The position numbers were made by a program, and so were the translations under genes. The notes under the pieces are model-generated. The model was given only the letters and a program-made list of their open reading frames with translations. It did no database searches and was not told the DNA's origin. Positions 7,316-38,473 of a stretch of DNA of 38,689 bases are shown here, piece after piece; positions within the stretch are counted from its first letter, which is position 1, and the number at the start of each line of letters is the position of its first letter. This DNA comes from a bacterium (lineage in GTDB: Bacteria; Patescibacteriota; Minisyncoccia; Phycocordibacterales; UBA918), in contig PAMC01000011.1 of NCBI GenBank assembly GCA_002710785.1, forward strand, positions 32,264-70,952, written 5' to 3'.

Positions 7316-7319
7316 AAAC
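7313..7319. repeat. left copy of the 7-bp junction core (att)
   Basis: CATAAAC. Its reverse complement GTTTATG supplies the ATG of the comM 3' fragment. Confidence 0.75.
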
Positions 7320-8239: not shown

Positions 8240-8296
8240 AGTGTTTGCTTAACGAGTAAACAAACCCTACGCTGTTAGTTGCAGTATACGCTCATT

Positions 8297-8332
8297 ATTG
8301 TGGGACACAATTTACAATTTCAGTCCCACAAT
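8297..8332. promoter_or_regulatory. operator-like inverted repeat upstream of 7574..8239
   Basis: ATTGTGGGAC, 16-nt spacer, GTCCCACAAT (perfect 10-bp arms). The spacer contains tandem ACAATTT ACAATTT with a third copy at 8328. On the minus strand it overlaps a possible TTGTGT-16-TATACT promoter. Confidence 0.45.
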
Positions 8333-9151
8333 TTATGTCTCAACTTCTTCTAAAAGATTGATCGAAACATGATGGTTAAAAACATCATCTATCTCAATCA
8401 GATAAACATGACCACGGTGCAGACTTGCTTTTAGTTCTGGTGATACTGTCGTTTTGATGATTTTACCTTCGTGCTCACCGGAACAAGCCTCAAAACAGAC
8501 TTCAAATTCTTTTTTCAAAAGCTCCCATGCGTATACTCGCATTTCAGCAATGTCTCCAGCTTTAACATCAGAATATATGACCTCCTCTCCATCATATAGA
8601 CGCCTAATAACACGACGGTTTTTTGCCCGGTACTCTTTTTTATTATAGTTTCTTGATTTTTTACCAACCTTAGATAATTTATCGGCTACTTTGTTTTCTT
8701 TACGGCGTTTAAAATCAACACTAACTTGCCCTCCTACAGCTTTTGCTAGTTTAAGGCGTGTTTTATCAATTTTATCCAACAGGTCAGCATCTTTGATATC
8801 TTTGCCTTCGTAGTTTTTCCATTTGTTTTTTCTCCAGCCCTGAATTTTATATGGATTGATTAGCTCTCCATCTGTCACACTGTGTCTGTCGGTGTATATT
8901 TCAACACCTGAAGCTTGTCTTACGATGTCGGGGTTTGCTTTTGCGTATTCAAGCAGACCTTCCATTGCATGAATAATGCTAATCATTTCTAGTCGGTGTA
9001 TACCTCTACCGTCACTTCTATAAAAGTACTGAATTGGTTCAGCATCGATACTGTCAGGAAAAGTTATTTCATAACCACCACCCCCAGTCTGTTGAGGATC
9101 GTAGTCCATTGCTCCGTCACAGTGTATTTGTATCGCATGTGGGTTGTTCAT
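8333..9151 (-). CDS. RNase HI-like protein with an unassigned C-terminal extension of about 105 aa (272 aa)
   Basis: RNase HI catalytic pattern read in the translation: HCDGA (D12), RLEMISI (E55), IYTDRHS (D88), ENKVADKLSK (D157). There is also a basic-protrusion-like GWRKNKWKNYEGKDIKDADL, comparable to E. coli RnhA WKKRGWKT..KPVKNVDLW. Residues from about 170 to 272 have no recognised motif. Confidence 0.7.
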   Translation of the reverse strand: MNNPHAIQIHCDGAMDYDPQQTGGGGYEITFPDSIDAEPIQYFYRSDGRGIHRLEMISIIHAMEGLLEYAKANPDIVRQASGVEIYTDRHSVTDGELINPYKIQGWRKNKWKNYEGKDIKDADLLDKIDKTRLKLAKAVGGQVSVDFKRRKENKVADKLSKVGKKSRNYNKKEYRAKNRRVIRRLYDGEEVIYSDVKAGDIAEMRVYAWELLKKEFEVCFEACSGEHEGKIIKTTVSPELKASLHRGHVYLIEIDDVFNHHVSINLLEEVET

Positions 9152-9209
9152 TTAACTACAATACTTCGATGAAAACACAAAGCAAGTTAACTTTTTATTG
9201 CAATCTGGA

Positions 9210-9233
9210 GGACAACTATTAGGAAAGTTGTCC
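9210..9233. promoter_or_regulatory. operator-like inverted repeat in the divergent control region
   Basis: GGACAACT, 8-nt spacer, AGTTGTCC (perfect) in the 143-bp gap between the divergent genes 8333..9151 and 9295..11094. Confidence 0.4.
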
Positions 9234-9294
9234 CACTATATGTATAGCTAGACATGACAATATTATTATTGTACGTTTCTAGTACGACAGAATC

Positions 9295-11094
9295 ATGGCG
9301 CAGGAAAATCAATTACCAATATATAGGGTTAACAAAGAACACGAAAAACTGCATCAGGCTACGACTTTTGACCAGGTTGTTAACTTAGTGATGCGAAATG
9401 AGCAAGAAAGATTAGAAAGAACTCCTATATCAAAACGTCAAGAAGGAGATGCCTATGTAGAAAAGACCTTGAACGATGACTTAGAATTAAGTGGATATTC
9501 AGTACGCGTATTTCATAAAGCGAGAGTAAACCCAAATCCATGGAATGGTTTCTTTCAGGACGTTGTACAAGATTTGCGTCAGCTTAAAAATGAAAGCCAT
9601 GACTTCATTGTTTTTATTTCAGATGAGCAGTCCGAAAATCAAAACATATACTGTTTTACTGGTGGCTCAGCATTTCATGTGATTTCTGATTTTGCTGACG
9701 AAGATTTTCCAATACAACTTCTGGTTAGATTTATTGACCCAGAAAAAATAAAAACTGCACGAAGCAGAATGTTGACTGGTTCATTTTATGCTAGGAGCAA
9801 TTTTTTTAGAGGTGCACACAGCATATCAGTAGCAGATGCATTTGGTGCGATATGGAAAGACGTGACGGCAACATTAAAAGATGAAGTACGTGCGGACCCA
9901 GATTTTTCATATTTATTTGAGAGTAAACGCGATTTAAACTGTGAAGCAAAGTCTTCTTTTAAACTAAAGAAAAGGGTTGGATTTGAACAAGGTCTTACAC
10001 TCATTAGCAAGCTTGAAACAATTCTTTCCAGAGAATTGACAGCAGATGAGTCAATGGTTCTGGACTTGTTTGAAACTTTTCAAATCATAAAATCAAAACC
10101 AAAAAAAGACGAAGTTAAAGAACGTATTTTGTCCTTAGCTCTATCCTATATAAATGATGAGACTAGCGAATTTGATTTTGATGTTTGCAATGTTGAATAT
10201 GAAAAATACTTTGAGGCTGAAAAATATGTAGTTGCATACAAACAGCATCGTTTTGAGTTCACGTCACATCCTAGCGGTAAAGACATCTTGGACGAACTAA
10301 AAAATTTGGAAGAAAGTCCAACTTCAACTCAAGAATTAGCAAACATTAAAATCAATACAGAAAGTAGTTTGGGTGAATGGCATACAACAAAGGGAACTTT
10401 ATATGACCATCTACATGGTGAAGTTGAATTAAATAATAACGAAAAGTATTTCTTAATTGATAAGAACTTGTACAAGGCCAAAGCTGATTTTCTTGAAAAA
10501 ATGAACCTCAATTTTATTAGTCGATTAAATACGGATGACTTGTTGTTGCACACAGATAACTCTTCCCAATTTATAGATTGGGGGAATATATCTGAAGGAG
10601 AATACAATGAGCTGTACCTACAACAACCTTCATTTGTTGTTGCAGACAGAGTGACTCTAAAAGGCATTGAAGTTTTTGATCTATTGTATTTTGGTCAAGA
10701 CAATAAAATCTATATAGTACAAGTTAAAAATGGACTAGGTTCCTCTACCAGAGATGCTTGCTCACAAATTAGGAACTCAGCAGATGTGATTGAAAACGCG
10801 ATTAATGATGGTCAGACAGAAAAACTTAGAGAGCTATATAGATTGCTTTCACGTACAACAAAGGTTTCATACCATGCAGATCTGCAAAGAATCATGAGAA
10901 CCTTCACTGAAGATGAATTTGTAAACTTGTTTAGAAACAACGAAAGGATTTACCTACTTCTATTTAAGTACCAAGCAAACAACGCTGATTTATCTAGGCT
11001 CGCTTCAAATATTGCCAAGTTTGAAATTTTAAGCACAGCTGATTACATGAGAATGCATAATGCTGATTTCAAAATGCTAAATATTGCCAGCTAA
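9295..11094 (+). CDS. 599-aa protein of unknown function with a PD-(D/E)xK-like C-terminal motif; possibly TIGR04141/DUF6119-like
   Basis: C-terminal EVFDLLYFGQDNKIYIVQVKNGLGSSTRDACSQIRNSADVIENA fits a D-x15-QxK nuclease-like core. The N-terminal IYCFTGGSAFHVISDF..DFPIQLL pattern and overall length match my recollection of the sporadically distributed TIGR04141 family. This is not verified by an HMM. Confidence 0.65.
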   Translation: MAQENQLPIYRVNKEHEKLHQATTFDQVVNLVMRNEQERLERTPISKRQEGDAYVEKTLNDDLELSGYSVRVFHKARVNPNPWNGFFQDVVQDLRQLKNESHDFIVFISDEQSENQNIYCFTGGSAFHVISDFADEDFPIQLLVRFIDPEKIKTARSRMLTGSFYARSNFFRGAHSISVADAFGAIWKDVTATLKDEVRADPDFSYLFESKRDLNCEAKSSFKLKKRVGFEQGLTLISKLETILSRELTADESMVLDLFETFQIIKSKPKKDEVKERILSLALSYINDETSEFDFDVCNVEYEKYFEAEKYVVAYKQHRFEFTSHPSGKDILDELKNLEESPTSTQELANIKINTESSLGEWHTTKGTLYDHLHGEVELNNNEKYFLIDKNLYKAKADFLEKMNLNFISRLNTDDLLLHTDNSSQFIDWGNISEGEYNELYLQQPSFVVADRVTLKGIEVFDLLYFGQDNKIYIVQVKNGLGSSTRDACSQIRNSADVIENAINDGQTEKLRELYRLLSRTTKVSYHADLQRIMRTFTEDEFVNLFRNNERIYLLLFKYQANNADLSRLASNIAKFEILSTADYMRMHNADFKMLNIAS

Positions 11095-12855
11095 GGCATT
11101 ACCTCGTTGCATCAAAGGATTGGATTTAAGGATTTCTTTCCTACGGTCAGATTCGCTTTTGATTTTTACATGCAATACCAGTCGCATATGCTTGCCTTCA
11201 GTTACGCTGGCAGGTGCTGATGTTGGCACTTTCGTGTTTAGTGGAAACTTAAATGCTACTTCTGCATACCCTTTCTTGTGGTAAAGAGTGATTTTTTCGA
11301 CAAAGAGACGTAGGATGTATTGTTGCTCTTCATAAGATAGGTTATCGAGTTTTGTCTGTAGTTTGCTGTACAAAGATTGAATAATTTTGTCTCGGTCTTT
11401 CTGCTCAGTCTTTTTCAGCAACATCTGTGAAAGCTTTTGTTTTTGTATAGTTAAATCCTTTTCATCTTTACATACTTGCTTCATCCGACTGTTATAATCG
11501 TCCTTATCCATCTGTGCTTCAAGATACACCTCCTGAATACGTTGCTTTTTGGTTTTAAGCGTATCAAATTGCTTGTCTAGTTGTACCAGCTCCTTTTTTA
11601 CTTTAGCTTCGTCACTAGTTTTGAATGTATATTCTTCCAGTTGGGGTATCACATTTTTAGGGTCGCTCAGTATTGCCAGAAGTGTGTCCCATATAGGCAT
11701 CAACCTACTTTCAGCACACTGTCCTTCAGGGTTACCGCTATCGTAATCAGTACCAATTCTCTCTAACGCTGGAACGTAAACATGGTAATACTTTCCAAGA
11801 TACGGTGTGACTTTGTCTTTCTTAGGAGACTGATAACCACTTTGTAGTTTTTTGCCAGAGTATCCTGAGTGAAGTAACCCAGCAAAGAGGTAAACCCGCT
11901 TCTCATTTCGTTTCTGGAATCGGCGATTATCTTGTAACTGTTGAATAGCTTTTTTAAAAAGTTCTTGAGAAACAATTTCAGGAACGGTGATTAAGATATG
12001 GTCTTCTTGTGGACGCTGGTGCTGTTCATCAACTACTGCGTTTAAGAACTGAAACGGTCGTTTGTACTTGTTGTAATAGAACGCGCCAGTATAAACCTCA
12101 TTAACTAAGATTCGGTTGATAGTTCGTTTGTACCACTTTCCCCCGACACGATTTTTACCCTTAGCGTTTTTATGCTTCGGGGTAGGTAAGTTTTGCTCAA
12201 TAGCACGTCTAGTTATTTCACGTAGAGAACATTTTTCGTAGACCAGCCATTCGTAGAATTTCTGAACAACCTCAGCTTCTGCTTCATGTTTGACCAGTTT
12301 TTTTGTCTCACTGTCTACTCGGTAACCATACGGCGGTACACCAGTTACCCATTTTCCTTCACGAGCACACTTGAGTCTTCCGTTCATTAGTCTCTCCGTT
12401 ATTAGTCTTCGTTCGTGTTGTGCAAGAACGGCCTTAATGTGTGTCATCAATTCGCCGTTTACAGTCCTAGTCTCGACCTCACGCTCATGAATCGAAAATA
12501 GCTCGATACCCATTTTAGTGAAGTCTTCAACAGTTTTAACACTGTTCAGAAAATTGCGAGAAAGTCTATCTAGAGCATATATAATGACGATATCAAACTC
12601 TTTGAGTTTTGCTGCTTCGAAAAGAGCACTTAGTGCTGGACGCTGTTCAATTGGCAAGTTTCCTGAGAATCCGCCATCTATATAGACATGCTCACTGTTC
12701 AGCATGTAGTTGTTGGATAGACAGCATTTTCTCAATGCCTCCTCTTGTGTTTCTAGGCTCGTACCATTATCTGCTTGGTCTTCGGTTGAAACCCGAAGAT
12801 AAATAGCAGCACGTTTTTGCCTAATGTTGGTAAATGTTTCATTGGTAATGTCCAT
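11077..12855 (-). CDS. large serine recombinase (integrase), 592 aa
   Basis: Resolvase catalytic domain (AAIYLRVSTEDQ with the nucleophile Ser, and YALDRLSRN), recombinase domain (PPYGYRVD), and a long coiled-coil (KKELVQLDKQFDTLKTKKQRIQEVYL...). The expected CxxC zinc-ribbon ligands are replaced (GLLHSGYSGKKL). Confidence 0.9.
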   Translation of the reverse strand: MDITNETFTNIRQKRAAIYLRVSTEDQADNGTSLETQEEALRKCCLSNNYMLNSEHVYIDGGFSGNLPIEQRPALSALFEAAKLKEFDIVIIYALDRLSRNFLNSVKTVEDFTKMGIELFSIHEREVETRTVNGELMTHIKAVLAQHERRLITERLMNGRLKCAREGKWVTGVPPYGYRVDSETKKLVKHEAEAEVVQKFYEWLVYEKCSLREITRRAIEQNLPTPKHKNAKGKNRVGGKWYKRTINRILVNEVYTGAFYYNKYKRPFQFLNAVVDEQHQRPQEDHILITVPEIVSQELFKKAIQQLQDNRRFQKRNEKRVYLFAGLLHSGYSGKKLQSGYQSPKKDKVTPYLGKYYHVYVPALERIGTDYDSGNPEGQCAESRLMPIWDTLLAILSDPKNVIPQLEEYTFKTSDEAKVKKELVQLDKQFDTLKTKKQRIQEVYLEAQMDKDDYNSRMKQVCKDEKDLTIQKQKLSQMLLKKTEQKDRDKIIQSLYSKLQTKLDNLSYEEQQYILRLFVEKITLYHKKGYAEVAFKFPLNTKVPTSAPASVTEGKHMRLVLHVKIKSESDRRKEILKSNPLMQRGNALAGNI

Positions 12856-12994
12856 ATATTTGAACTGGATTTGATTCGATTTCCAGTGTCTTTACAGAAA
12901 TGAGTTCTCGCACTAACTCATCCCTAGAAAGAGACTTGATTCTCTGAATTTCATCTGCTATTAAGTAATCTTTAATGTCATCAATATGGTTCAT
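12839..12994 (-). CDS. possible 51-aa ORF overlapping the recombinase start (candidate accessory factor)
   Basis: My own translation: MNHIDDIKDYLIADEIQRIKSLSRDELVRELISVKTLEIESNPVQIYGHYQ*. It is below the track size cutoff and its TGA lies 14 nt inside the recombinase ORF. No SD and no recognised motif. Confidence 0.25.
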   Translation of the reverse strand: MNHIDDIKDYLIADEIQRIKSLSRDELVRELISVKTLEIESNPVQIYGHYQ

Positions 12995-13104
12995 ATAACT
13001 GGGGAGAGTATCCTAGGCCATGAAATATGGCTCAAAATAACGGTCCTCCAGTTATATAATTCCATATATTGACAACTGTGTAAATACGTTGTGTTATGAG
13101 ACTG

Positions 13105-14883
13105 TTAACTACCACTGGCTAAAGTAAAGGTGTGTTCTCTGCCTTTCTTACCTTTAACAATCAGCTTGTCAGTAGCTAAGTCGTCTAGTGCGTCAGTGAT
13201 GTTACGACCACCGACATCTTCTTCAGTTTGAACTTCGTGGATGATTTCCTTGCGGGTAAGGGTGCCTTGATTGAGAAGCTCAAGGATAGCTTTTCGAGCT
13301 AGTCCCTTTTTAGTCAATCTGCCAGAGCCCATACCTGAAGATTCGAGTAGGATTGGGTCATCGATTTCGTCTTGCCGAATAGTCACCTGGAATGAATCAA
13401 CATTTTTTCCCCTGCGTGACTTCACATGCTCGACATTAAGTGATTTTGTAGTTCCAGTATCATCAGTATGGTCAATTGTGATGTGCGAATCGAGCCGACC
13501 TGAGTATGCTGATGAACCTCGAAGGCTGTGTCCTGAACTGCCATTTGCACCCTTACGATGGTGATGAATAAACAGTACCGCGGCTCCCGCTTCGTTTAGT
13601 AGCTGTAACTGCTCCATGACCGCTTGTGCTTCTTCGGCACTGTTTTCGACACCTGAGTGAACTGCTACAAATGGGTCTATGACCACTAAGCCGATTGACT
13701 TGTCACGAATGGTTTTTGTGATGAGTTCGATGTCGTCTTCGTCATCTACTTTGAAACCATTTTGTGAGTAAAAGAACACAGGAGAGTCTTCGGGGTAAGA
13801 GAGTAGTTTCATCCTACGTCGCATTTCCCAGATACCACTCTCTTCGTCAATCACAAGCACATTTGCTTGTTTAGTTTTGAAGAGGTCAAGGAATGCTTCA
13901 CCAGTTGCAATGCTATTTGCCATACTGAGCATGAACCATGACTTACCACAACCAGGATGACCAGAGAGTGCTGTAATACCTTTTTCAGGTACTAGTCCAG
14001 AGACTAGGAACTGAGGTTTCTCTGACTCTGGCATATTAAGTACCGTAGATACGGTCAGTAGTTCACGTTTCTTTTTGTGAATGGCTTTTTCAGGCTGCTT
14101 TTTATTTGCCAGTGAGGAGTAAATGCTACTCACTTCACTTGATGGCAGGGGTGGATGGTTTTTTGCTTTGTTCCATGCGTGAAGCATGGGGTAGACAACC
14201 TCATTCCAGTTCTTTTTAGGGATGTGATGTAGCAACTTTCCTGTAATGGAAACCATCTTAGTGTGGCGCTCTCCTTGTGTAGAGCCCTGCATGATTGCTT
14301 CCCAGTCAGTTGGTTCAGATTCATTACCTTTTACATACTCGATGAATTCATCTGGCAGAGGCGCTAGCTTGCTAACGTCAAGTGGTTCTACCCATTCGTA
14401 CTCGTTACCATTTGGATGAACGCTTGGTGGAAGAGTAGTGTAAGTTTTATCTGCCCTCAGTTCACCAATGATACCGTGTTTCCTTAGGTCGACAGTTGGC
14501 AAGTTGTCCTTGTCATAGTCATCAGGAACCCGGAAGTAATAATGCCAACCTCCACCCCCGCTCCTAGCCCTGACTGTTTCTGGTAAGTTGAACCTCGCTG
14601 GTTCTTCACCCTCTTCGAGGTCGAGTACGCAGACATCCTCATCAAGGCCGGTTATTAGCCCGACACCAGTTAGCGTATTGCTAAAGGTGTCGAACCAGTC
14701 CCGGATATCTTGCTCAGAAGCAGGTTTCTCTCTCAGACTAGACCACTTGACGAGTGGTTCTTTACCATTCAATGGTACAAGTTTCCAACCGTCAGCTTCG
14801 TAATCCAATGCTGATTCCAGCAACCTATCATGCTTATTGGACATAATCTTTGGCGAAGTAGCCATTATGTAAGTAGTACTCAA
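13105..14883 (-). CDS. bifunctional primase-polymerase (PrimPol) / RepA-like AAA helicase with C-terminal wHTH
   Basis: The N-terminal Prim-Pol pattern is GKEPLVKWSSL...VCVLDLEEG...RSGGGGWHYYF...LPPSVHPNGNEYEW. Walker A is GHPGCGKSW and Walker B is VLVIDEESG. The true start may be ATG 14844 (MSNKHD), which overlaps the upstream stop. Confidence 0.85.
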   Translation of the reverse strand: MSTTYIMATSPKIMSNKHDRLLESALDYEADGWKLVPLNGKEPLVKWSSLREKPASEQDIRDWFDTFSNTLTGVGLITGLDEDVCVLDLEEGEEPARFNLPETVRARSGGGGWHYYFRVPDDYDKDNLPTVDLRKHGIIGELRADKTYTTLPPSVHPNGNEYEWVEPLDVSKLAPLPDEFIEYVKGNESEPTDWEAIMQGSTQGERHTKMVSITGKLLHHIPKKNWNEVVYPMLHAWNKAKNHPPLPSSEVSSIYSSLANKKQPEKAIHKKKRELLTVSTVLNMPESEKPQFLVSGLVPEKGITALSGHPGCGKSWFMLSMANSIATGEAFLDLFKTKQANVLVIDEESGIWEMRRRMKLLSYPEDSPVFFYSQNGFKVDDEDDIELITKTIRDKSIGLVVIDPFVAVHSGVENSAEEAQAVMEQLQLLNEAGAAVLFIHHHRKGANGSSGHSLRGSSAYSGRLDSHITIDHTDDTGTTKSLNVEHVKSRRGKNVDSFQVTIRQDEIDDPILLESSGMGSGRLTKKGLARKAILELLNQGTLTRKEIIHEVQTEEDVGGRNITDALDDLATDKLIVKGKKGREHTFTLASGS

Positions 14884-15265
14884 TGACTTTGTCCATCACT
14901 TTAGACAGGTCAATATTCACACACTTCGGACGGTCGTTGTTGTTTCCATCTTTGTAGTGTGCCCAGAATGTAGCGACTGGATAGCTTCGACCATTCGGGA
15001 ATGCGTAATGTACTGTGAAGTCTTGCTGCTTAAGGTGTCGATGTGAGAATGCTTCACGGTAGGGGCTGTAGTACGTTTCATCATCGACTTTGCTAGGGAA
15101 ATGGATGTGACCTTTCTCCACGAGATATGTCATGGAATTGATGAGTTCTTCGTCATAGAGTTCATCTTCGTCATTGTCCATGAACGCTGCTAATTGCAGG
15201 TCTTCTTCTTCGTTAATGTAGTGAGGAATTGTTTCTCCTGCTTCGTTAGTGGTTTTTGTCGTCAT
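14834..15265 (-). CDS. hypothetical protein (143 aa), acidic N-terminus
   Basis: Track ORF in an overlapping same-strand gene chain with the PrimPol gene. No motif recognised. Confidence 0.5.
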   Translation of the reverse strand: MTTKTTNEAGETIPHYINEEEDLQLAAFMDNDEDELYDEELINSMTYLVEKGHIHFPSKVDDETYYSPYREAFSHRHLKQQDFTVHYAFPNGRSYPVATFWAHYKDGNNNDRPKCVNIDLSKVMDKVIEYYLHNGYFAKDYVQ

Positions 15266-15482
15266 AGATTGTTGTGTTAAGTTTCATAATTTCGTCATGC
15301 AAGTACTTCTTAAACAGCGTGTGTAACGCAACATCGACCTCGCTTTCGCGTCGTTGCTCAACTTGCTGTGTTTCTTTCTCTTGCATGCTGGCATTAAACC
15401 GCAAACAAAATTGACTGATAAGAACTAACGCATAGCTACTTACAACAAAAAAAGCCCTAAAAATAAGGTTATTTTTGTACAC
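15246..15482 (-). CDS. small hypothetical protein (78 aa from GTG, or 46 aa from ATG 15386)
   Basis: Track ORF that overlaps the next gene by 20 nt. The start is ambiguous. Confidence 0.3.
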   Translation of the reverse strand: MYKNNLIFRAFFVVSSYALVLISQFCLRFNASMQEKETQQVEQRRESEVDVALHTLFKKYLHDEIMKLNTTIYDDKNH

Positions 15483-15531
15483 TATAATTTAGTTAAATTA
15501 GTTACTCACAAGCTACTGATTAGCCAGTCTA

Positions 15532-16338
15532 CTAGTCGAGCATTGGGTTGTTAAAAATGAGTCTTGATGGTTTTGCACGGCGCACCCACTCGAACATCAC
15601 TGCACCAGACGGAAGCGTCGTATCCATGTGTTTGCGGAAAGATAAATTGACCGAGTTTTCGATATTCTTTTTAAGTCTGTCTCTCGGAATTTCCTTAAAT
15701 TTCAATTTTGTTCGCAACGTCTTATCAATTTCTGCCACCGTTGCGTCACCACTACCGTTTGTTGCGAGATATATCGCAACAAGAATTTTGAAGTACTTTG
15801 TGTCACGGCTCATAGTTAATGACACCTCTTTTCGTCCCTTGCCTTGAAAAAACTGGTACGAATCATTCATGTACAGGTATCGTCCGTTGTCGTTGGTCAG
15901 TTTCTTAATGACTTCAGAATCGTTGTGTAGAAGATTCTTTTCACGCATTTTGCGCAGAGCACTTATTTTAAGCACCTTTACTACCAAGAACGGTTCGAAC
16001 TCCAGTTCGAGATAAGGGTCTTTTAACCTAATAAATCGGAATGGTACATCGTCTGAATCAGTGAAACGTTTATACCAGTAGTCACTATATGAGTAGAATT
16101 TCAGAATCCCATTTTTCTCAAAGTAGTTCCTGAATGACTCAAACCTTTTGTTTGTCTCATGTGTGACATTTTCATCTGGTAAAAAACGATTGATTAGCAG
16201 TTTGTCTTTACCAGCGATAGTGTCTCGATTCCATCCTGACTGTTCAGCACGGGTATATTCGTTTTCTATATCTGATAGGTAACGAATCAGGATCTCATCA
16301 AACTCAAAGAGAGGTTTATTATGCAAAGTGGCAACCAT
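15532..16338 (-). CDS. hypothetical protein (268 aa), possible wHTH regulator or replication initiator
   Basis: Track ORF. The C-terminal YFKILVAIYLATNGSGDATVAEIDKTL looks like a winged helix. Its start codon sits inside a 39-bp palindrome. Confidence 0.5.
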   Translation of the reverse strand: MVATLHNKPLFEFDEILIRYLSDIENEYTRAEQSGWNRDTIAGKDKLLINRFLPDENVTHETNKRFESFRNYFEKNGILKFYSYSDYWYKRFTDSDDVPFRFIRLKDPYLELEFEPFLVVKVLKISALRKMREKNLLHNDSEVIKKLTNDNGRYLYMNDSYQFFQGKGRKEVSLTMSRDTKYFKILVAIYLATNGSGDATVAEIDKTLRTKLKFKEIPRDRLKKNIENSVNLSFRKHMDTTLPSGAVMFEWVRRAKPSRLIFNNPMLD

Positions 16339-16360
16339 ATATATAGGTTGCCACTTTGCA
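16322..16360. promoter_or_regulatory. 15-bp perfect inverted repeat around a 9-bp ATATATATA centre, covering the start codon of 15532..16338
   Basis: TGCAAAGTGGCAACC at 16322-16336 and GGTTGCCACTTTGCA at 16346-16360, read directly. Confidence 0.6.
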
Positions 16361-16472
16361 CCTTATTTGTAAATTGCCAGAATTACCTATGATTTTATCG
16401 AGGTTGGTATATTACCTCGTATTTCGGCCACTTCATTTAATAGTGGACGTTTTCTAGACAACTAAACGTATC

Positions 16473-17057
16473 CTAGTTTCCGCAAAAGGTACGAGGAGTT
16501 AAACTCACATCGTAATATCCACCATCGTAGGAACAAGTAACCCCAGGTGCAAACTTGTTGCTCGGATATTCACAATACTCAATCGCACCATTGCTTACAC
16601 CTGCTGGTGGGTTAGTTGGGTTTCCTTTCAAGAATGGTTTCAGTCCAACTAACTCAAGTGCTTTGTCACTGTTACGAACTGCACCAGCTTTAGTACAGCT
16701 ACCAAGACTTTTAATTTGCACTTCTACATAGTCTGATATGACACCATCTTTACTCTCAACAAGTAGTTCGTACTCGTCATTTTCAAACACTAAATTACCT
16801 ACACCGTTCAGTGGGGTATCAAATTGCTCTGATAAATTCGACATTGGAACGTCATACAACGTTGCTATTCTTACCAACGGCTCTACAGCAGGCAGGACAT
16901 TTTCCACTTCATCAGTAGTGACACTTTTCTGAGTTGTTGGAGCAGTAACTTCGTCTTCACTAAACACTCCCCATATGAATACTCCTGCTCCAGCTAAAAT
17001 TATTAAACCAACAACTAACTGTGGTATCGAAACTTCCTCGTCTTTTTTGTACTCCAT
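16473..17057 (-). CDS. membrane-anchored extracytoplasmic protein (194 aa, 4 Cys)
   Basis: From ATG 17057: MEYKKDEEVSIPQLVVGLIILAGAGVFIWGVF (TM anchor), then a soluble Cys-containing domain. The track extension to 17159 runs through a structured GC-rich leader and is rejected. Confidence 0.55.
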   Translation of the reverse strand: MEYKKDEEVSIPQLVVGLIILAGAGVFIWGVFSEDEVTAPTTQKSVTTDEVENVLPAVEPLVRIATLYDVPMSNLSEQFDTPLNGVGNLVFENDEYELLVESKDGVISDYVEVQIKSLGSCTKAGAVRNSDKALELVGLKPFLKGNPTNPPAGVSNGAIEYCEYPSNKFAPGVTCSYDGGYYDVSLTPRTFCGN

Positions 17058-17225
17058 AAAAATTGTGATGACTTGTAAGTCGCGGAGTAACAAAAAACTC
17101 CCCGCGAGGTGGTGGCTCGGCCACCCACTGTCAGTTTCCCAACAGGGCCTACAAAGCATCCCTCACGGAGAGGTTTTTACTTTGTAGGACTTGCGGCCAT
17201 ACCTCTGTCTCACAACAAAGGGTTA
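17058..17225 (-). ncRNA. GC-rich structured leader or small RNA candidate
   Basis: Clearly more GC-rich than the surrounding island. Perfect 9-bp stem CCTACAAAG/CTTTGTAGG (17149-17157 / 17181-17189). AGAGGT/ACCTCT is interleaved with that stem in a pseudoknot or alternative-pairing topology. Further hairpins: GGTGGC-TCG-GCCACC and CGCGGAG...CTCCCCGCG. A possible minus-strand promoter, TTTACT-17-TACTAT, lies just upstream. Confidence 0.3.
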
Positions 17226-17422
17226 GGCCATTTCATATTCAGTTGTAACTACATAGTATTTCTTTAGCAGGCAAAAGTAAACTGAGTATAAATTATTAGA
17301 ATTTACTACGGATATTTTCTTGATTGCCACATAGTGAGTGTCTCTCGTATAACTCCAGGGTCTCTCGTGGACCACTCTGAATAAGGTCTTGCCATTTCTG
17401 TAAATTAATACACTATGTAGAG

Positions 17423-18247
17423 ATGAGTATTCCATATATTGAACGAAATCCTACAAATGACGAGGTGCTGCAGATGCAGCTTGCTTTTAGTACTTTTTGT
17501 GACGGTTCTGGTCAAGAAAGAGATGGTAACGGTATGACTCGAGCAGGATGGAGGGATATCGAGAGGATTTTTGCTGAGATTTTAGGAGGTAAGGCCAACG
17601 AAAATAAACATATTTTCGATGTTCTTGTCCCAGATTCAGATAATGAAGATATCATTTACGGAATATCATTAAAATCAAAGCAAATATCTAGGGCATCTGC
17701 AATTGAAGACTTAGAGGAGGAAGGAAGGGTGCATATGGAAATAGCAAATTCTCCTGCTAAATTTTGGGCAGAACTGACAAAGGCTGGTATTTCAGAAAGT
17801 GACTTTAGAAGTAAAAATAAAGCATCAGAAATTGGTCAGATTTTACTTAAAACAATTGACTCGTGGCACCTGGAAGCAAAGACGGCTTTCGAAACACAAA
17901 ATCCTGACAAAAGGTTAGATTTAAATAAAAGTGTTTACATTACCGTATCTTATAGCCCTTTTAGAGATGGAATTGGTCGCTTATATCAAGCCCATTCTTT
18001 CCCACTAACCTTTCCAGAAAATATCAAATGGTCATATATTAGTGACAGATGTTTACGTGGAATGGATCCAACGGATGAAAACAAAACACTAATTGATTGG
18101 TATGGTTTATCAGGTGGGCAGTTCAAATATTATCCCAAGGCAAATACGGCAAATTATAAATCTGCAAGATTCTCCCTACTTGAACCTGAAATAATTTCGA
18201 TTGTTGAAAAAGCGAAGACTTACTGGCCTGAGAAATGGCCTGAATAA
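17423..18247 (+). CDS. putative type II restriction endonuclease (274 aa)
   Basis: Convergent with the C5-methyltransferase, with one base between the two stop codons. IFDVLVPD...YGISLKSK...IEDLEEE fits a PD...SxK...E variant of the PD-(D/E)xK core. The assignment rests on context and a weak motif only. Confidence 0.5.
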   Translation: MSIPYIERNPTNDEVLQMQLAFSTFCDGSGQERDGNGMTRAGWRDIERIFAEILGGKANENKHIFDVLVPDSDNEDIIYGISLKSKQISRASAIEDLEEEGRVHMEIANSPAKFWAELTKAGISESDFRSKNKASEIGQILLKTIDSWHLEAKTAFETQNPDKRLDLNKSVYITVSYSPFRDGIGRLYQAHSFPLTFPENIKWSYISDRCLRGMDPTDENKTLIDWYGLSGGQFKYYPKANTANYKSARFSLLEPEIISIVEKAKTYWPEKWPE

Positions 18248-18248
18248 A

Positions 18249-19346
18249 TTATGGTAATTTATTTTGTCTGATGTTTTTTGCGGTTACTAAAGGTGTTTTA
18301 GAGTTAATGCCATAGGTGTTAATGAGGTGAGAAAACATAACTTGTGCAAGCATGGGTGGTACCGCATTTCCAATTTGTGTAAATTTTTGTTCGGTATTGC
18401 CCTCAAAATGAAAATTGTCTGGAAAGGTCTGAATTCTAGCCGCCTCTCTCCACGATAGCCGTCGTGGCTTTTCAAGAATCTGTCTAGTGGAATCTTTTTC
18501 AAGATGTTCGTATTCATCACTGAAATCCCATCTTTGCTTCCAACCATTTTCCAGATCAGACCAAGTCAGTTTCATTTTTGGGCAAGCTGGATGCAATGTG
18601 ATGTGCCTCCAGTTAGCAACTACGGTGTAAGCTGGCTTGTCCCAGTCTGCTTTTCTGTTTCTTGACATGAAATACCATGAAAAATTACCTTCTTCGTTAG
18701 GTCTTTCGTAGAATTCTCCCTCAGGCCAGAGTGGTAGATCTTTTATCACTTCTCCATGTGATGTGTATGGTAATAAATTAGAGGTTTTTTTTGTAACCTT
18801 CCCATGGGTTTCTTCTGGAAAAACAAATTCGAAATCTAAATCTTTTCGAACCCCCACTAAAAAGATGCGTTTTCTCGATTGCGGAACACCATAATCCTGT
18901 GCATTAACTACTTTGTATGTGACGTTATAGCCAGACTTTCCACTTTTACCAAAAACTTTTAGCTGTTCTGATAGAAAGCTGCCATTTTTTATTTTTGAAA
19001 GCCCTGATACATTCTCTGCAATAAAAAAAAGGGGGTTTACTTGGTTCAACACTCGTGCAAATTGTAAGTATAAGAGTGTCCTAGGATCTTTTTTAGGATC
19101 TCTTTTTCCTCCCATTGAAAAGGATTGGCAGGGATAACCGCCAAAAACAATTTCAGCTTCTGGAAATGAATCGACATTATTTATATCATCAATAATTACC
19201 TCAGTGCCAGGAAAGTTTTTTGATAAAGCTTTGCCAATAACAGGATCTATTTCATTAGCATATACTATATCTACACCACTTTTGTGCGCTGCAATATCCA
19301 TTCCGCCAACACCTGAAAAAAGACTGATTCCTCTAAGTTTTTGCAT
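18249..19346 (-). CDS. DNA (cytosine-5)-methyltransferase
   Basis: Motif I FSGVGG, motif IV GGYPCQSFS, ENV, QSRKRIFLVG, RLSWREAARIQTFPD and GNAVPP, in canonical order. Confidence 0.92.
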   Translation of the reverse strand: MQKLRGISLFSGVGGMDIAAHKSGVDIVYANEIDPVIGKALSKNFPGTEVIIDDINNVDSFPEAEIVFGGYPCQSFSMGGKRDPKKDPRTLLYLQFARVLNQVNPLFFIAENVSGLSKIKNGSFLSEQLKVFGKSGKSGYNVTYKVVNAQDYGVPQSRKRIFLVGVRKDLDFEFVFPEETHGKVTKKTSNLLPYTSHGEVIKDLPLWPEGEFYERPNEEGNFSWYFMSRNRKADWDKPAYTVVANWRHITLHPACPKMKLTWSDLENGWKQRWDFSDEYEHLEKDSTRQILEKPRRLSWREAARIQTFPDNFHFEGNTEQKFTQIGNAVPPMLAQVMFSHLINTYGINSKTPLVTAKNIRQNKLP

Positions 19347-34106: not shown

Positions 34107-34218
34107 TTCGCTATTGTATCAAAATGGAGCCGAAAGGCTCCTTTAGGTGTTTGCTCAGTGTTTTGCTCTCGCCATCGCAAAAACTAGGCCAAAACGCAAT
34201 GTTTGATACACTGTGCAC

Positions 34219-35022
34219 ATGAAAATCTACTCCTGGAACGTAAATGGCATCCGTGCGGTGGAGAAAAAAGGCCTACTAGAGCCGTTTTTGCGCGAGCACC
34301 AGCCAGATGTCTTGTGTATTCAAGAAACCAAGGCCCAGGAAGAGCAGGTTGACGGCCAATTTTTGGAGAAATACGGCGAATATGAGCAATATTGGCATTC
34401 TGCCGAGCGAAAAGGCTACTCTGGCACGGCCATTTTTACCAAAATACCGCCAGAAAACGTGGTTTTTGGGATTCCGGAAGACCTCAAGCACAAGTACGAG
34501 CTTGATGATACCTACGGCGATACCACTAAGGAGGGTCGAGTAACCACCGCTGAGTTTGAGCATTTCTACGTCTCCACCGTCTATACCCCCAACGCTAAAG
34601 ATGATTTAAGCCGCATTCCGATGCGCCAACACTGGGACCCAGCGTACTTAGAGTACATGCAGCGCTTAAACGAGGAAAAACCAGTCATCTACTGCGGCGA
34701 CTTTAACGTGGCGCACACCGAAATCGACCTGGCACGTCCGAAACCGAACGCAGGCAAAAAGGGGTTTACCGAAGAGGAGCGCAGCGGGTTTGACGCCATG
34801 CTCGCCGCTGGGTTCGTCGACACCTTTCGCTTGTTTGAGAAAGCGGGCGGCCACTACACCTGGTGGAGCCAGATGGGAGGGGCCCGAGCACGTAACGTTG
34901 GCTGGCGCATCGACTACGTGATGGTCGCTGAGGCGCTGGTACCGGTTGTGAAGCGGGCCAATATCCACCCCGACGTGATGGGCTCCGACCACAGTCCCGT
35001 TTCGGTTGAGATTGCGCTCTAG
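34219..35022 (+). CDS. xth: exodeoxyribonuclease III
   Basis: MKIYSWNVNGIRA, CIQETK, GDFNVAH and SDHSPV motifs of the EEP/Xth family. ATG 34219 is preferred to GTG 34213. Confidence 0.9.
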   Translation: MKIYSWNVNGIRAVEKKGLLEPFLREHQPDVLCIQETKAQEEQVDGQFLEKYGEYEQYWHSAERKGYSGTAIFTKIPPENVVFGIPEDLKHKYELDDTYGDTTKEGRVTTAEFEHFYVSTVYTPNAKDDLSRIPMRQHWDPAYLEYMQRLNEEKPVIYCGDFNVAHTEIDLARPKPNAGKKGFTEEERSGFDAMLAAGFVDTFRLFEKAGGHYTWWSQMGGARARNVGWRIDYVMVAEALVPVVKRANIHPDVMGSDHSPVSVEIAL

Positions 35023-35094
35023 GGAGCGTCAACAAATAGCGCCAATAACACCACGAAACACAAAAAAAGCAAGTATATACCCTATGTTACCAAT

Positions 35095-35121
35095 AAAACC
35101 GCTCTGTTGAGCGGTTTTATT
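35095..35121 (+). terminator. Rho-independent terminator of xth
   Basis: AAAACCGCTC-TGTT-GAGCGGTTTT, then ATT. Confidence 0.75.
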
Positions 35122-35201
35122 GCAATTCTCAAGGAGTTGTCTTTTATAAAGGACACGATTTAGGACAAGCACTCGGGTAATCCACAGTTGTCCCCAGGTA
35201 C

Positions 35202-35235
35202 TGTCCTTTACAACATTTTGTAAAGGACATAGTAT
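35202..35235 (+). promoter_or_regulatory. promoter with an embedded 11-bp inverted repeat operator
   Basis: TTTACA (35207-35212), 17-nt spacer, TAGTAT (35230-35235). The perfect inverted repeat TGTCCTTTACA / TGTAAAGGACA (35202-35212 / 35219-35229) spans the -35 box and spacer. A related imperfect palindrome TGTCTTTTATAAAGGACA lies at 35138-35155. Confidence 0.45.
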
Positions 35236-35286
35236 ATGTGCAGGCCCAGAGAGGGCAAGATGAGTTTGACAATCGTATACTTCCTC

Positions 35287-35335
35287 TGAGTCGGAACGAG
35301 TACCGAAGTAGTAGAGCGCTTCGCTACTCCTTCCG
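35287..35335 (+). repeat. structured motif, copy 1
   Basis: TGAGTCGGAACGAGTACCGAAGTAGTAGAGCGCTTCGCTACTCCTTCCG. Lower stem CGGAACGAGTA/TACTCCTTCCG (one C-C mismatch), upper stem CGAAG/CTTCG, loop TAGTAGAGCG. Preceded by ATCGTAT and 8 nt. Confidence 0.7.
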
Positions 35336-35488
35336 CCTTGGAGGAGGCATACACGTAGAGCGACGCGATGATTTTCACCACGTCAGTCAGACACGCTTAA
35401 ACCGATCTTTCGAATAGAAGAAAAGTATATACCTCCAATTACTTTCTTCACCATACGTTCAACATTCCCACCTATCGTATTCGGCCCG

Positions 35489-35537
35489 TGAGTCGGAACG
35501 AGTACCAGAGTAGTAGAGCGCTCTGATACTCCTTCCG
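35489..35537 (+). repeat. structured motif, copy 2
   Basis: TGAGTCGGAACGAGTACCAGAGTAGTAGAGCGCTCTGATACTCCTTCCG. Identical to copy 1 except the upper stem CAGAG/CTCTG (two compensated pairs) and one junction base. Also preceded by ATCGTAT and 8 nt. Confidence 0.7.
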
Positions 35538-35712
35538 GCTCATGACAGCGAACATCCGGTTCGCGCAGTTACACTCACTAAGAGAGTAACGATCATTGAA
35601 GCCGAGTACAACGAAGAGATGAGTTATGTCACTGGGTTTAAGTTTCGAAGTGAAACGCCCAATAATGCGAACCTAATGGTTCACGACAATGTAGAGCTCA
35701 CTCACCACTCAA

Positions 35713-35779
35713 GGCCGGAAGGCACCGGAGCTGATACACCCACCACTTTATCAGCCCCGATTCCTTCCGGTCTTTTTTA
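35713..35779 (+). terminator. strong Rho-independent terminator
   Basis: Long imperfect hairpin (outer CCGGAAGG/CCTTCCGG, inner GAGCTGATA/TATCAGC) followed by TCTTTTTTA. Only an A-run precedes it on the minus strand, so it is plus-strand specific. Confidence 0.8.
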
Positions 35780-35890
35780 TTTTACTTGCCTTTTCCGCCC
35801 CTAAAGCGAATAATACTAAGTAAAATAGGGAGTATTTACCTAGTTGACCTGGTAAGTTGTCCCAATACACACTTTTAGTTTTTTGGCTTT

Positions 35891-37369
35891 TTACCCCACT
35901 TTATGCTCACGCTCGATGGCTTTGATGGCGGCAGCTTCCTCGGCGGCTTGTTTTTCCTTACCTTTTTCGGCCAGCGCCTCTAAATCGCTTATTTCTAGGG
36001 CTAAAAGCTCCTCGGTGCGGGTGTCCAGGTACTCTTCGGTGTTATTTTCAGGGGTTTCCAACACCTCTTCAAGCAGTGCGTGCAGTATAAAACCAAGCTT
36101 TTTCCCCGGTTTTTCCCCAAACTTATCCATAATGTGGTCGCCATTGGTTTTGAGCATTTTGACCGAAATTGGGTCACGCCGGGCCTGATCGACCATGGCT
36201 TTGTACTTGCGAAAGCGAAACGGCTGCTCTTTGGGTCGACCGGTGCCGATGCGGTCGCAGACGCGTAAATTGAGCAGATCTTCGATATTTTCCTCGCCAA
36301 TCCGAACAATGGTGCGGCGCACGGCCGAAAGCGTAATTTCGTCAGGATCAGCGAAAAACATGTGCCAACGCACCAATTTCTCGACTTTTTCGGCTGTTTC
36401 ACGTGGCATCTTAAGACGCTGCATGATTTTACGCGTCATTTTTGCCCCCACTACCTCATGTCCAAAGAAGGTATAACGCTTTGTTTTACCCCCTTCCCGG
36501 CGGGTCGCAGGCTTGGCAATGTCGTGCAAGAGGCCAGCCAGCCGCAATTCGAGCTCAAAACCCTTATCTGCAGCTGCCTGAGCAGTCCGCAGATTGTGCT
36601 CGTAGACGTCAAAATCGTGAATACCACCTTGTTCGCAGCCAATACCCTCCTTGAGCTCTGGAACGACAAAATCGAGAATACCCAGCCGCTCAAGCATAAC
36701 AATCCCCTGCAGTGGCGTAGTTGAGCCAATAATTCGCAAAAATTCGTCGCGCACACGCTCGATAGCAATGTCCTTTAGAAGTTCATGGTGCTCGGCAATT
36801 GCCGTCAGCGTCTCATTTTCGATGGCAAAATTAAGCTCAGCCGCTAGGCGCACGGCGCGCATCATGCGCAGCGCGTCCTCACTAAAGCGCTCGACCGGAT
36901 TACCAACCGTTTTAAGCCGTTTTTTGCCAATATCCCCCACTCCGTCGAATAAATCGACCAGTTTTTCTTCCTGAGGGCGCCAGGCCATGGCGTTAACGGT
37001 AAAATCGCGTCGTTTAAGGTCTTCTTCGAGCGACACGCCGAAGGTAACGCTGTCGGGTCGGCGGCGGTCGCTGTAGCCGCTCTCGGCCCGGTAGGGCGTA
37101 ACCTCAACTACTTTATGGGTCTCATCATCAACCGCTTCATTTATTACCCCAACGGTGCCGTAGTCGTTATTGCAGTAAGTTTCGTCTGGTCCAAATAGCT
37201 CTTGAATTTCGGTGGGTGTAGCGTTGGTGGTGATGTCCCAGTCTTTGGGGGTTTTGCCGATGCAGAGGTCGCGCACGCAGCCACCGACTAAATACGCCTC
37301 AAAACCTGCTTTTTCTAGGGTTTCTGCGACGTTTAGGACGGGCTGTGGAATCTGGGTGCGCGTAATCAT
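35891..37369 (-). CDS. cca: CCA-adding tRNA nucleotidyltransferase with HD domain
   Basis: GGCVRDLCIGKTPKDWDITT head domain and HD motif LLHDIAKP. 492 aa. Confidence 0.88.
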   Translation of the reverse strand: MITRTQIPQPVLNVAETLEKAGFEAYLVGGCVRDLCIGKTPKDWDITTNATPTEIQELFGPDETYCNNDYGTVGVINEAVDDETHKVVEVTPYRAESGYSDRRRPDSVTFGVSLEEDLKRRDFTVNAMAWRPQEEKLVDLFDGVGDIGKKRLKTVGNPVERFSEDALRMMRAVRLAAELNFAIENETLTAIAEHHELLKDIAIERVRDEFLRIIGSTTPLQGIVMLERLGILDFVVPELKEGIGCEQGGIHDFDVYEHNLRTAQAAADKGFELELRLAGLLHDIAKPATRREGGKTKRYTFFGHEVVGAKMTRKIMQRLKMPRETAEKVEKLVRWHMFFADPDEITLSAVRRTIVRIGEENIEDLLNLRVCDRIGTGRPKEQPFRFRKYKAMVDQARRDPISVKMLKTNGDHIMDKFGEKPGKKLGFILHALLEEVLETPENNTEEYLDTRTEELLALEISDLEALAEKGKEKQAAEEAAAIKAIEREHKVG

Positions 37370-38017: not shown

Positions 38018-38317
38018 TTAACGTTGAACTTTAGCTAACTCACTAATTTTCTTGGCCATCTCAACATCCGTATCAGTGATTTGGTTACCAACATCATGGG
38101 TACAGAATGAGAATGATACCTTGGTGTATGAACAACAAAATTCCGGATGGTGATTCATTTGCTCCGCTAGCACCCCTACCTTCTGTATGAAATCCATAGT
38201 GTCTGCGAAAGTTTTAAAGGTATATGTTGCTTCTAACTGATTTCCGTTCACGGACCACCCAGGTAGTTCTTTAAGGTTGGCATTGATCTGGTCTAGGCTC
38301 AAAACCGCGTGTTTCAT
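38018..38317 (-). CDS. pterin-4-alpha-carbinolamine dehydratase-like protein
   Basis: LPGWSV...MNHHPEF...THD pattern and the 99-aa length typical of the PCD/DCoH family. Confidence 0.8.
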   Translation of the reverse strand: MKHAVLSLDQINANLKELPGWSVNGNQLEATYTFKTFADTMDFIQKVGVLAEQMNHHPEFCCSYTKVSFSFCTHDVGNQITDTDVEMAKKISELAKVQR

Positions 38318-38473
38318 GTGAAAATACTAGCATAAATACAGCTTTTGGGGATAACTGTGGAAAACTCAGTGTATAAGTGGATAAAGGACAATGTTTACAT
38401 GTCGCATATGTTAAATTATAATCATAATTATAGCTGTATTTGTTGCTTTTATAGTAGAAATTAAAAATATAAA

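Follow-up and report, generated by a model that had tools for sequence, protein, structure and literature searches.

The spacer between the convergent genes xth and cca (positions 35023-35890, 868 bp) in a 38,689-nt stretch of contig PAMC01000011.1 very probably holds a stand-alone gene for a highly structured non-coding RNA, predicted on the plus strand at 35242-35779 with a sigma-70-type promoter and an intrinsic terminator. The whole stretch is called the window below, and all positions refer to it unless another locus is named. As far as sequence comparison can tell, this RNA represents a large, structured, clade-specific family of Paceibacteria, in the candidate phyla radiation (CPR, or Patescibacteria), that is absent from Rfam 15. 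The overall explanation that we prefer, with a probability of roughly 0.6, is that the gene makes a non-coding RNA which would act in trans as a scaffold or decoy and whose level would be controlled at transcription initiation. A preliminary description of this DNA had proposed an independent structured plus-strand RNA of about 540 nt, and this is borne out by a location and strand that are conserved in 44 sources, by strong covariation of its helices and by an excess of G-U pairs. The flanking genes and the parts of the transcription unit are:

34213-35022, plus strand: xth, with the Pfam domain Exo_endo_phos
35091-35122, plus strand: intrinsic terminator hairpin of xth, a 14-bp perfect stem followed by TTTTATTG
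35207-35235, plus strand: promoter from a promoter scan, with -35 TTTACA, a 17-nt spacer and -10 TAGTAT
35242-35779, plus strand: predicted non-coding RNA transcript of about 538 nt, from promoter, fold, covariation, and ortholog profile and covariance-model matches
35711-35779, plus strand: terminal hairpin and U-tract forming the intrinsic terminator, a hairpin with 26-nt arms (35711-35774) and then TTTTTT, conserved in sequence and with a CACCAC-type loop
35891-37369, minus strand: cca, with the Pfam PolyA_pol head and RNA-binding and HD domains

Relatives were gathered with the cca protein, which gave 70 loci (L001-L070) from species-representative genomes. Nearly all are CPR/Patescibacteria metagenome-assembled genomes (MAGs), labelled Paceibacteria, Parcubacteria, Nomurabacteria, Kaiserbacteria or 'Saccharibacteria', and the amino acid identity of their cca proteins to that of the window is at most 77%. 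xth is convergent to cca, as in the window, in about 60 of the 70 loci, with a spacer of 300-2700 nt, and sequence searches showed that the spacer is conserved well above the neutral expectation. A sequence profile built from orthologs finds exactly one copy of the RNA in the window and in each of 40 of the 70 loci (L001-L036, L038, L041, L059, and L063), always between xth and cca and on the strand that reads from xth to cca. Three metagenome contigs (L071-L073) match the profile as well, and a covariance model of the 3' domain only, R1, recovers the same 44 sources on the same strand, namely, the window, 40 Paceibacteria/CPR species genomes and the three contigs. Matches of the profile and R1 on the opposite strand are only palindromic echoes of the terminal hairpin. 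The RNA is thus present, with covarying helices, in the syntenic spacers of relatives. From predicted start to terminator the family members measure 318-545 nt, the window's copy being the longest. In the distant xth-cca loci L037, L039, L040, L042-L058, L060-L062, and L064-L070 neither the profile hidden Markov model nor R1 found a homolog. Viral contigs gave 64 matches to the P1 15-mer; all were due to chance and none fits the family profile. Three CPR-type cca contigs (L020, L053, and L063) are binned in MAGs titled Cryomorphaceae, Rhodoferax, and Saprospiraceae, and L020 and L063 also carry the family RNA; these names are probably binning errors in the public assemblies.

The boundaries of the transcription unit agree with this distribution. 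Because xth has its own terminator at 35091-35122, its transcription is separate from that of the RNA and the upstream boundary of the RNA unit is marked; the Leu_leader and RNAI models match this hairpin alone, by their terminator part. The promoter-like TTTACA-17-TAGTAT that had been pointed out earlier is reported by the promoter scan and both of its hexamers are conserved in the ortholog alignment (A1), so that transcription would start near 35242. The strong plus-strand terminator of the preliminary description was also found, and the RNA ends there, 111 nt short of the cca stop codon and with no overlap. When the terminal hairpin is read on the minus strand no U-tract follows it. The folding z-score against dinucleotide shuffles is -10.6 on the plus strand (35236-35782) and -8.0 on the minus strand. 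Since G-U pairs exceed A-C mismatches (58:29 and 19:5), and because of the orientation of the promoter and the terminator, the RNA is placed on the plus strand. The statement that no credible open reading frame (ORF) lies between xth and cca stands: the spacer ORFs are all short, the two longest, both on the plus strand, encode 59 amino acids (35238-35417) and 61 amino acids (35619-35804), neither has a Pfam match, and neither frame nor length is kept across 33 orthologs. The ORFs of the RNA strand change from ortholog to ortholog in frame, length, and position: the window and L034 use different frames with respect to the invariant P1, and the longest ORF of L004 has 6 amino acids. On these grounds the locus is judged non-coding. 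With a conserved promoter and terminator of its own, a structure backed by compensatory changes and no conserved frame, the locus has the properties of an independent non-coding RNA gene.

The fold derived from these alignments is modular and consists of P1, a variable P2, the P3 hairpin, a variable P4, a three-way junction, and a terminal hairpin that is conserved in sequence. Its predicted parts upstream of the terminal hairpin, all on the plus strand, are:

35244-35256, plus strand: P1 hairpin, GCCC-AGAGA-GGGC in the window and GCCC-AGARA-GGGC in the family, invariant in most members
35257-35398, plus strand: P2, with a 3-bp base helix AAG/CUU, expanded in the window by hairpin copy 1 and a small hairpin
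35284-35343, plus strand: hairpin copy 1, which lies in P2 as an insertion and is a lineage-specific duplicate of P4
35399-35416, plus strand: J2/3 linker, conserved, with the family consensus CCYUAAAGAGnUCnUUCCAMAA
35417-35449, plus strand: P3 hairpin, GAAGAAA/UUUCUUC, whose loop carries UACCUCCAA, with ACCUCC at 35431-35436
35450-35473, plus strand: J3/4 linker, conserved, ending in ACGUUCAACAUUCCCACCU in the window; AACGUUCAUAACAUCCCACC in the family
35487-35544, plus strand: P4 arm, which is hairpin copy 2, GUGAGYCG..CUCCUUCCGGCUC, with a conserved base GUGAGCCGCAAAGAG...CUCCUUCCGGCUCG and a variable distal part
35546-35600, plus strand: two small hairpins (about 35549-35565 and about 35570-35593), from the single-sequence minimum free energy fold only
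35608-35703, plus strand: 3' junction domain, a closing helix of about 35616-35625 with 35694-35703 around two hairpins

Covariation was found along the whole molecule. The second pair of P1 changes from C-G to U-G (L007, L008, L009, and L017) and to U-A (L006 and L014). P2 varies from 3 bp with a GNRA loop (L005, L006, L007, L017, and L038) to about 140 nt in the window and has many compensatory changes; the middle pair of its base helix, RRG/CYY in the family, covaries (GAG/CUU, GCG/CGU, and AGG/CCU) and is among the strongest mutual-information signals, the pairs that the scan gave for P2 being 19-79, 23-76, and 24-75. When global MAFFT alignments of the full RNA or the 5' domain are folded with RNAalifold, P1, P2, and the terminal hairpin are all that is recovered, since P3 is set out of register by MAFFT. 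P3 was therefore judged by independent single-sequence folds and stem tables: it forms in 33 of 34 such folds with at least 12 distinct stem sequences, among them UUGAGU/ACUCAA, GUUAGA/UCUAAC, GCGAUU/AAUCGC, AGGUUGU/ACAACCU, and UAGAAUU/AAUUCUA besides that of the window, and UACCUCCAA in its loop is near-invariant across the family. For P4 the share of paired cells is 94%, and both partners have changed in 11 of its 19 pairs; none of 500 shuffles scored as high and slid partners were 31-47% paired. In more distant members unrelated sequences replace the distal part of P4 and pairing is retained. The 3' domain opens with the motif ACAACGUAGAGCUU (ACAACG(U/A)AGAG in the family) and is closed by the helix GAGCUU/AAGCUC; its 41 pairs are 88% paired, as against 36-51% with slid partners, and 29 of them change on both sides. 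In the terminal hairpin the internal loops are conserved and the apical loop is of the CACCAC type, and in the consensus fold 26 of the 34 predicted pairs of this hairpin and P2 show compensatory change. Invariant A/C-rich single strands connect the helices. A possible isolated tertiary pair, C21-G84 in model columns (about 35260 and about 35402 in the window), crosses the P2 base helix and becomes U-A in L016 and L035; these two events are too few to judge. The likeness of the P4 base GAGCCG...CGGCUC to domain V of group II introns was followed up and rejected, there being no Intron_gpII match and the length and shape of the arm being wrong.

The preliminary description had drawn attention to a 49-nt element that occurs twice, 202 nt apart, with 5 differences of which four are compensatory, and the sequence agrees. 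The elements are the cores of a direct repeat of 67 nt (35272-35338 and 35474-35540, 84% identical, spacing 202 nt), and four of the exactly 5 differences exchange CGAAG/CTTCG for CAGAG/CTCTG. A search for further copies found the 18-mer TGAGTCGGAACGAGTACC only at the two hairpin copies in the 38.7 kb (0 expected). Thus, the repeat is real, but the core of the RNA does not include the duplication: comparison with relatives identifies copy 2 as the ancestral P4 arm and copy 1 as a later insertion. In the window 188 nt separate P1 from the ACCUCC loop; for most orthologs the figure is about 105-110 nt. Metagenomes were scanned for the loop-plus-stem pattern of the hairpin, which gave five contigs (L071-L075). 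Three of them (L071, L073, and L075) have the family RNA with both hairpin copies, 222 nt apart, and L072 has one copy at the P4 position and an ordinary P2; the match in L074 was discarded as a chance one in a GC-rich coding region. The insertion of copy 1 in P2 is therefore limited to the window, L071, L073, and L075, and since only these have both copies a single duplication event in a shared ancestor would account for its presence in the window and the L071 group. The likeness between the copies ends about 10 nt beyond either side, and the ATCGTAT flank that they share is window-specific. A mobile hairpin of the REP (repetitive extragenic palindromic) or MITE (miniature inverted-repeat transposable element) kind was rejected, as there are only two copies in the 38.7 kb and, in the metagenome scan, the pattern lies only inside the family RNA (L071, L072, L073, and L075) apart from the chance match.

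The upper stem of this hairpin takes three forms, all paired: CGAAG/CUUCG in copy 1 of the window, L072, and L001, CGGAG/CUCCG in both copies of L071, L073, and L075, and CAGAG/CUCUG in copy 2 of the window. All six distinct hairpins have one and the same loop, UAGUAGAGCG. The covariation between the two copies had been taken as a sign of selection on RNA structure. Selection is borne out, by the covariation among orthologs, but a compensatory change between two copies is weak proof when it stands alone, because template switching at a quasi-palindrome or gene conversion could make matched changes; both copies in L071 bear the same stem variant. It is the ortholog covariation that is decisive. 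The 11-mer AAGTATATACC, also noted earlier, does occur twice, at 35071-35081 in the 3' tail of xth and at 35423-35433 as part of the P3 loop. This pair is probably due to chance, because the copy in the xth tail is not kept in L071, the closest relative examined, which has AAGTAGTATGG.

Searches for known RNA families gave no match at the locus. With the 4227 covariance models of Rfam 15 at gathering thresholds, the window contains only LOOT and two tRNAs, all outside the locus; an additional scan of 34900-36000 at E <= 10 gave only terminator or hairpin look-alikes far below threshold, and scans of 15 related loci gave only tRNAs, LOOT, and noise. ARAGORN found only tRNA-Arg and tRNA-Gly in the window, nothing tRNA-like in the spacer, and no tmRNA (transfer-messenger RNA) in 13 related loci. 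The absence of signatures of RNase P, tmRNA, signal recognition particle (SRP) RNA, and T-box, which had been noted by eye, is in line with these blanks. A T-box or other cis-regulatory leader was rejected because the downstream gene cca is convergent, the terminator looks constitutive, and there is no T-box match. A full-text literature search found no description of such an RNA in CPR or Paceibacteria. The family resembles ROOL, GOLLD, raiA, HEARO, and LOOT in that all were found by comparative genomics, have well-supported folds, and are biochemically orphan, but the models of those RNAs do not match the locus at E <= 10 and they are not tied to xth-cca or to a promoter with palindromes and DnaA boxes.

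That promoter is the second conserved part of the locus, and the elements upstream of and around it are:

35138-35155, no strand: palindrome O1, TGTCTTTTATAAAGGACA, a candidate operator conserved in orthologs
35178-35196, plus strand: two tandem DnaA-box-like 9-mers, TAATCCACA (35178-35186), G, and TTGTCCCCA (35188-35196)
35202-35229, no strand: gapped palindrome O2, TGTCCTTTACAA-CATT-TTGTAAAGGACA, overlapping the -35 hexamer and the spacer, conserved in orthologs

The order of O1, the tandem boxes, O2, and the -10 TAGTAT is conserved, and O2, one of the palindromes with TGTCCTTTA..TAAAGGACA half-sites around the promoter, overlaps the core promoter. Each of the 34 orthologous promoters that were tested has, on the RNA strand and at about -62, about -52, or both, a box that departs from TTATCCACA at no more than one position, as against 5% of 110-nt windows drawn at random from these loci. 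The regulators of the RNA would be a factor that binds the two TGTCCTTTA/TAAAGGACA palindromes, together with DnaA at the tandem boxes just upstream of the -35 hexamer, and we put the chance that both control transcription at about even, going by the motifs. The 18-bp palindrome, TGTCCTTTATAAAGGACA, is found again, often with two copies side by side, at another intergenic site 2.5-3.7 kb upstream of the cca start in L006 (1466-1502), L008, L009, L013, L015, L017, and L038, and in L006 it adjoins tRNA-Pro. This site is either the start of another small transcript or a general protein-binding site. A second promoter of the same style is seen in the window at 38320-38392 on the minus strand, with a TGTCCTTTA half-site overlapping TTATCCACT, tandem boxes TTTTCCACA-G-TTATCCCCA, and a -10 TAGTAT that is 6 nt before the ATG of a gene (38018-38317) for a 99-amino acid Pterin_4a protein (pterin-4a-carbinolamine dehydratase). 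Its motifs suggest a small regulon with a shared DnaA-like box. Since the boxes and the palindromes both recur elsewhere in the relatives or the window, they are regulon-type elements and not unique to the RNA.

How the RNA works can be proposed with less certainty than that it exists. It would act in trans, its covarying helices holding the invariant single-stranded motifs for a protein partner and possibly for an RNA partner. Candidate contact sites are the P3 loop, J2/3, and J3/4 and, in the lineage of the window, also the two UAGUAGAGCG hairpin loops, the number of which is doubled there by the extra hairpin. The level of the RNA would be set at transcription initiation. That the mode of action is a protein-binding scaffold or decoy is a tentative proposal, somewhat short of even odds when taken by itself; it fits better than a short-seed base-pairing RNA because of the variable peripheral helices, the invariant A/C-rich linkers and loop motifs, the strict single-copy synteny in very small genomes, and the elaborate promoter. 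The CsrB/RsmZ, CrcZ, and 6S/Ms1-type RNAs are comparable in being stand-alone genes with a regulated promoter, an intrinsic terminator, and short single-stranded motifs on a hairpin scaffold, and in protein-sequestering small RNAs the number of hairpins can vary by duplication, as it does here. However, the family lacks the repeated GGA loops of CsrB/RsmZ, the A-rich Hfq/Crc motifs, and the 6S rod with its central bubble, and its motifs are mostly single-copy, only the UAGUAGAGCG hairpin being doubled and in one sublineage.

Several observations weigh against the explanation preferred here. Every member of the family comes from a MAG or a metagenome contig, and the family is confined to one clade, distant relatives having a different structured sequence in the same spacer. 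The ACCUCC loop is missing in L014 and altered in L009 and L015, so that the motif is not strictly required. A mutual-information scan of the 44 sequences recovered the helices and no convincing long-range or tertiary pair, so that any compact three-dimensional fold would be hypothetical. As to the regulators, DnaA is assigned from the 9-mer consensus alone, and the palindrome is present at other intergenic sites in relatives and may be a general element instead of a dedicated operator.

The rival to be weighed first is a base-pairing, trans-acting small RNA, whose seeds for G-rich (GGAGG-like) sites in mRNAs would be UACCUCCAA of the P3 loop and the C-rich linker CCCACC, and which would control the translation or stability of those mRNAs. 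In favor of this are the invariant C-rich motifs presented unpaired in a hairpin loop, the promoter and terminator that belong to the RNA itself, and the scarcity of GGAGG-type motifs around the start codons of this genome, owing to which such sites could be specific targets. But a length of 320-545 nt, many covarying helices, and several long invariant linkers are atypical of seed-type small RNAs, and sites complementary to the P3 loop (TTGGAGGTA targets) are not enriched in the window (11 as against 7.0 +/- 2.5 expected). The usual target site also seems to be gone. A Shine-Dalgarno (SD)-like motif is found at -20 to -4 in 1 of 28 likely genes of the window, compared to a background of 9%, and in most of the 28 a -10-like hexamer precedes the start codon by 7-12 nt; because of these hexamers and the lack of SD motifs, the mRNAs appear to be leaderless or nearly so. 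About half of Parcubacteria have 16S rRNA without the anti-SD motif (PMC9297842). The ACCUCC loop of P3 is identical to the 16S anti-SD core, and since the window genes have no SD sites it is unlikely to target ribosome-binding sites. A small RNA of this kind is therefore considered rather unlikely.

A wider reading, to which we give only a slim chance, takes up the same loop. This would be a large CPR-specific RNA, made under a control by DnaA that ties it to the initiation of replication, which acts on the translation apparatus of a host that gave up SD initiation, or else a new catalytic or assembly RNA. In one version the loop, being like the tail of 16S rRNA, would capture a ribosomal protein or the 30S subunit. 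OLE RNA (RF01071) of Bacillota offers a parallel, since it too is large, lineage-restricted, and built of many covarying helices joined by highly conserved nucleotides, and its CCUCCU, an anti-SD mimic to which ribosomal protein bS21 binds (PMC12054373), recalls the near-invariant ACCUCC of the family. This would be an analogy of function and not evidence of membership: there is no homology in sequence or structure and no match to the OLE covariance model, the OLE mimic is paired in P6 whereas the ACCUCC of the family is unpaired in the P3 hairpin loop, and OLE is membrane-associated through OapA, whereas no such gene lies near the family RNA and the host here does not use SD.

A catalytic or self-acting large RNA, that is, a ribozyme or an RNA-only assembly as suspected for other large ornate bacterial RNAs, is improbable. 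Large size, invariant junction nucleotides between covarying helices, variable peripheral helices, and retention in very small genomes are what it would lead one to expect. The mutual-information scan, however, detected no pseudoknot or long-range pair, the structure resembles a string of local hairpins on A/C-rich linkers, and no Rfam ribozyme model is similar to it.

Still less probable is a housekeeping RNA (RNase P RNA, 6S, SRP RNA, or tmRNA) so divergent in CPR that the Rfam models miss it. The length range overlaps that of RNase P RNA (rnpB), the gene is single-copy, conserved, and syntenic in reduced genomes, and like rnpB it has a conserved core with variable peripheral helices. However, none of these models matches even at E <= 10. 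RNase P RNA was rejected because the CR-I and CR-V strands of its P4, GGAAAGUCC and ACAGAA..GGCUUA, are absent from the sequence and the 5' and 3' ends make local hairpins and do not pair with each other as P1 of RNase P and as 6S require; 6S and SRP RNA were rejected because the predicted and consensus folds are likewise series of local hairpins; and tmRNA because ARAGORN finds no tRNA-like acceptor/T-arm domain. Finally, housekeeping RNAs would be recognisable in sister clades, whereas this family is limited to one.

Two further rivals have very little in their favor. If the locus were a DNA-level element (a DnaA-box locus, origin-like, datA/DARS-like, or a palindromic repeat region) with incidental RNA features, the two tandem DnaA-like boxes conserved in all 34 orthologs and the recurrence of AT-centred palindromes elsewhere in relatives would be explained. 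But there are only two boxes, confined to 110 bp upstream of the conserved body, and the body of 320-545 nt has strand-specific, G-U-tolerant covariation, a promoter, and a U-tract terminator. The two boxes only, the chance-level box counts across the window, the convergence of the flanking genes, and the position of the locus in the closed genome CP060229.1, at 0.30-0.31 Mb of 0.99 Mb, make a replication origin unlikely; the skew profile of the window was uninformative on origin position. A cis-acting element, either a long 3' untranslated region of xth or an antisense/terminator module for cca, would suit a site between convergent genes and a terminal hairpin palindromic enough to score on both strands. 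Here the perfect xth terminator upstream of the promoter, the end of the RNA before the cca stop codon, and the minus-strand hairpin without a U-tract speak against it, and so does the inversion of the promoter-plus-RNA unit in distant relatives, where it still lies between the same two genes. The least probable is one or more small proteins, such as that of the 59-amino acid GTG ORF at the 5' end of the transcript translated leaderless, because although an ORF of 23-77 amino acids within a few nucleotides of the predicted start recurs in many orthologs and the genome seems to use leaderless mRNAs, its frame relative to the invariant GGCCCAGAGAGGGC differs (GTG CAG GCC in the window and GTG ACA GGC in L034), its length and end vary, L004 has none of more than 6 amino acids, it crosses P2 with its range of about 10 to about 140 nt, it has no Pfam match, and the substitutions are compensatory in helices and not codon-periodic.

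The inverted units just mentioned come from more distant Paceibacteria, with cca 55-60% identical, which keep the xth-cca spacer and the module of palindromes and DnaA boxes. In five loci the module is inverted, lies next to cca, and drives a different sequence of about 350-500 nt, on the plus strand in each and in the opposite orientation to the window RNA:

L045, 2225-2720, plus strand: sister-clade sequence
L046, 1975-2400, plus strand: sister-clade sequence
L051, 5525-5960, plus strand: sister-clade sequence
L060, 5585-6060, plus strand: sister-clade sequence
L067, 5590-5944, plus strand: sister-clade sequence

It ends in its own terminator (AAACCGCG..CGCGGTTTT), has 80 predicted pairs in the five sequences, 27 of them with compensatory changes, and has no Rfam match. 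This RNA would be either an extremely diverged homolog or a replacement. The spacers of L056, L058, and L062 and of L042, L043, L061, and L066 have other sequences, with TGTCCTTTAC direct repeats in the promoter and a different downstream sequence. On the wider reading above, the presence of a different structured RNA behind the same promoter module in sister clades would mean that the slot is an RNA locus which evolves fast throughout Paceibacteria but is conserved in function.

CPR/Patescibacteria genomes are about 1 Mb or less and have very little non-coding DNA, and despite this compactness the lineage keeps a structured RNA gene of 0.3-0.5 kb whose promoter is elaborate and conserved. Bacterial RNAs that are both large and structured are rare, and several of them proved to be ribozymes or cores of RNA-protein complexes. 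A family of 44 members with clear covariation is suited to curation in Rfam and to experiments. The locus makes three things testable, namely, DnaA-like boxes paired with palindromic operators, a loop identical to the anti-SD in a genome without SD, and a different structured RNA in the same slot of a sister clade, and these bear on growth-related regulation and on translation start in uncultured CPR organisms.

Elsewhere in the window, the LOOT RNA (RF03000) at 17111-17229 on the minus strand scored 71.9 bits against a gathering threshold of 46.4 and is another orphan structured RNA in the same genome. It lies inside a segment, about 7000-19000, with a GC content of 34-46% as against 52-60% on either side, which may have been acquired horizontally or be otherwise atypical.

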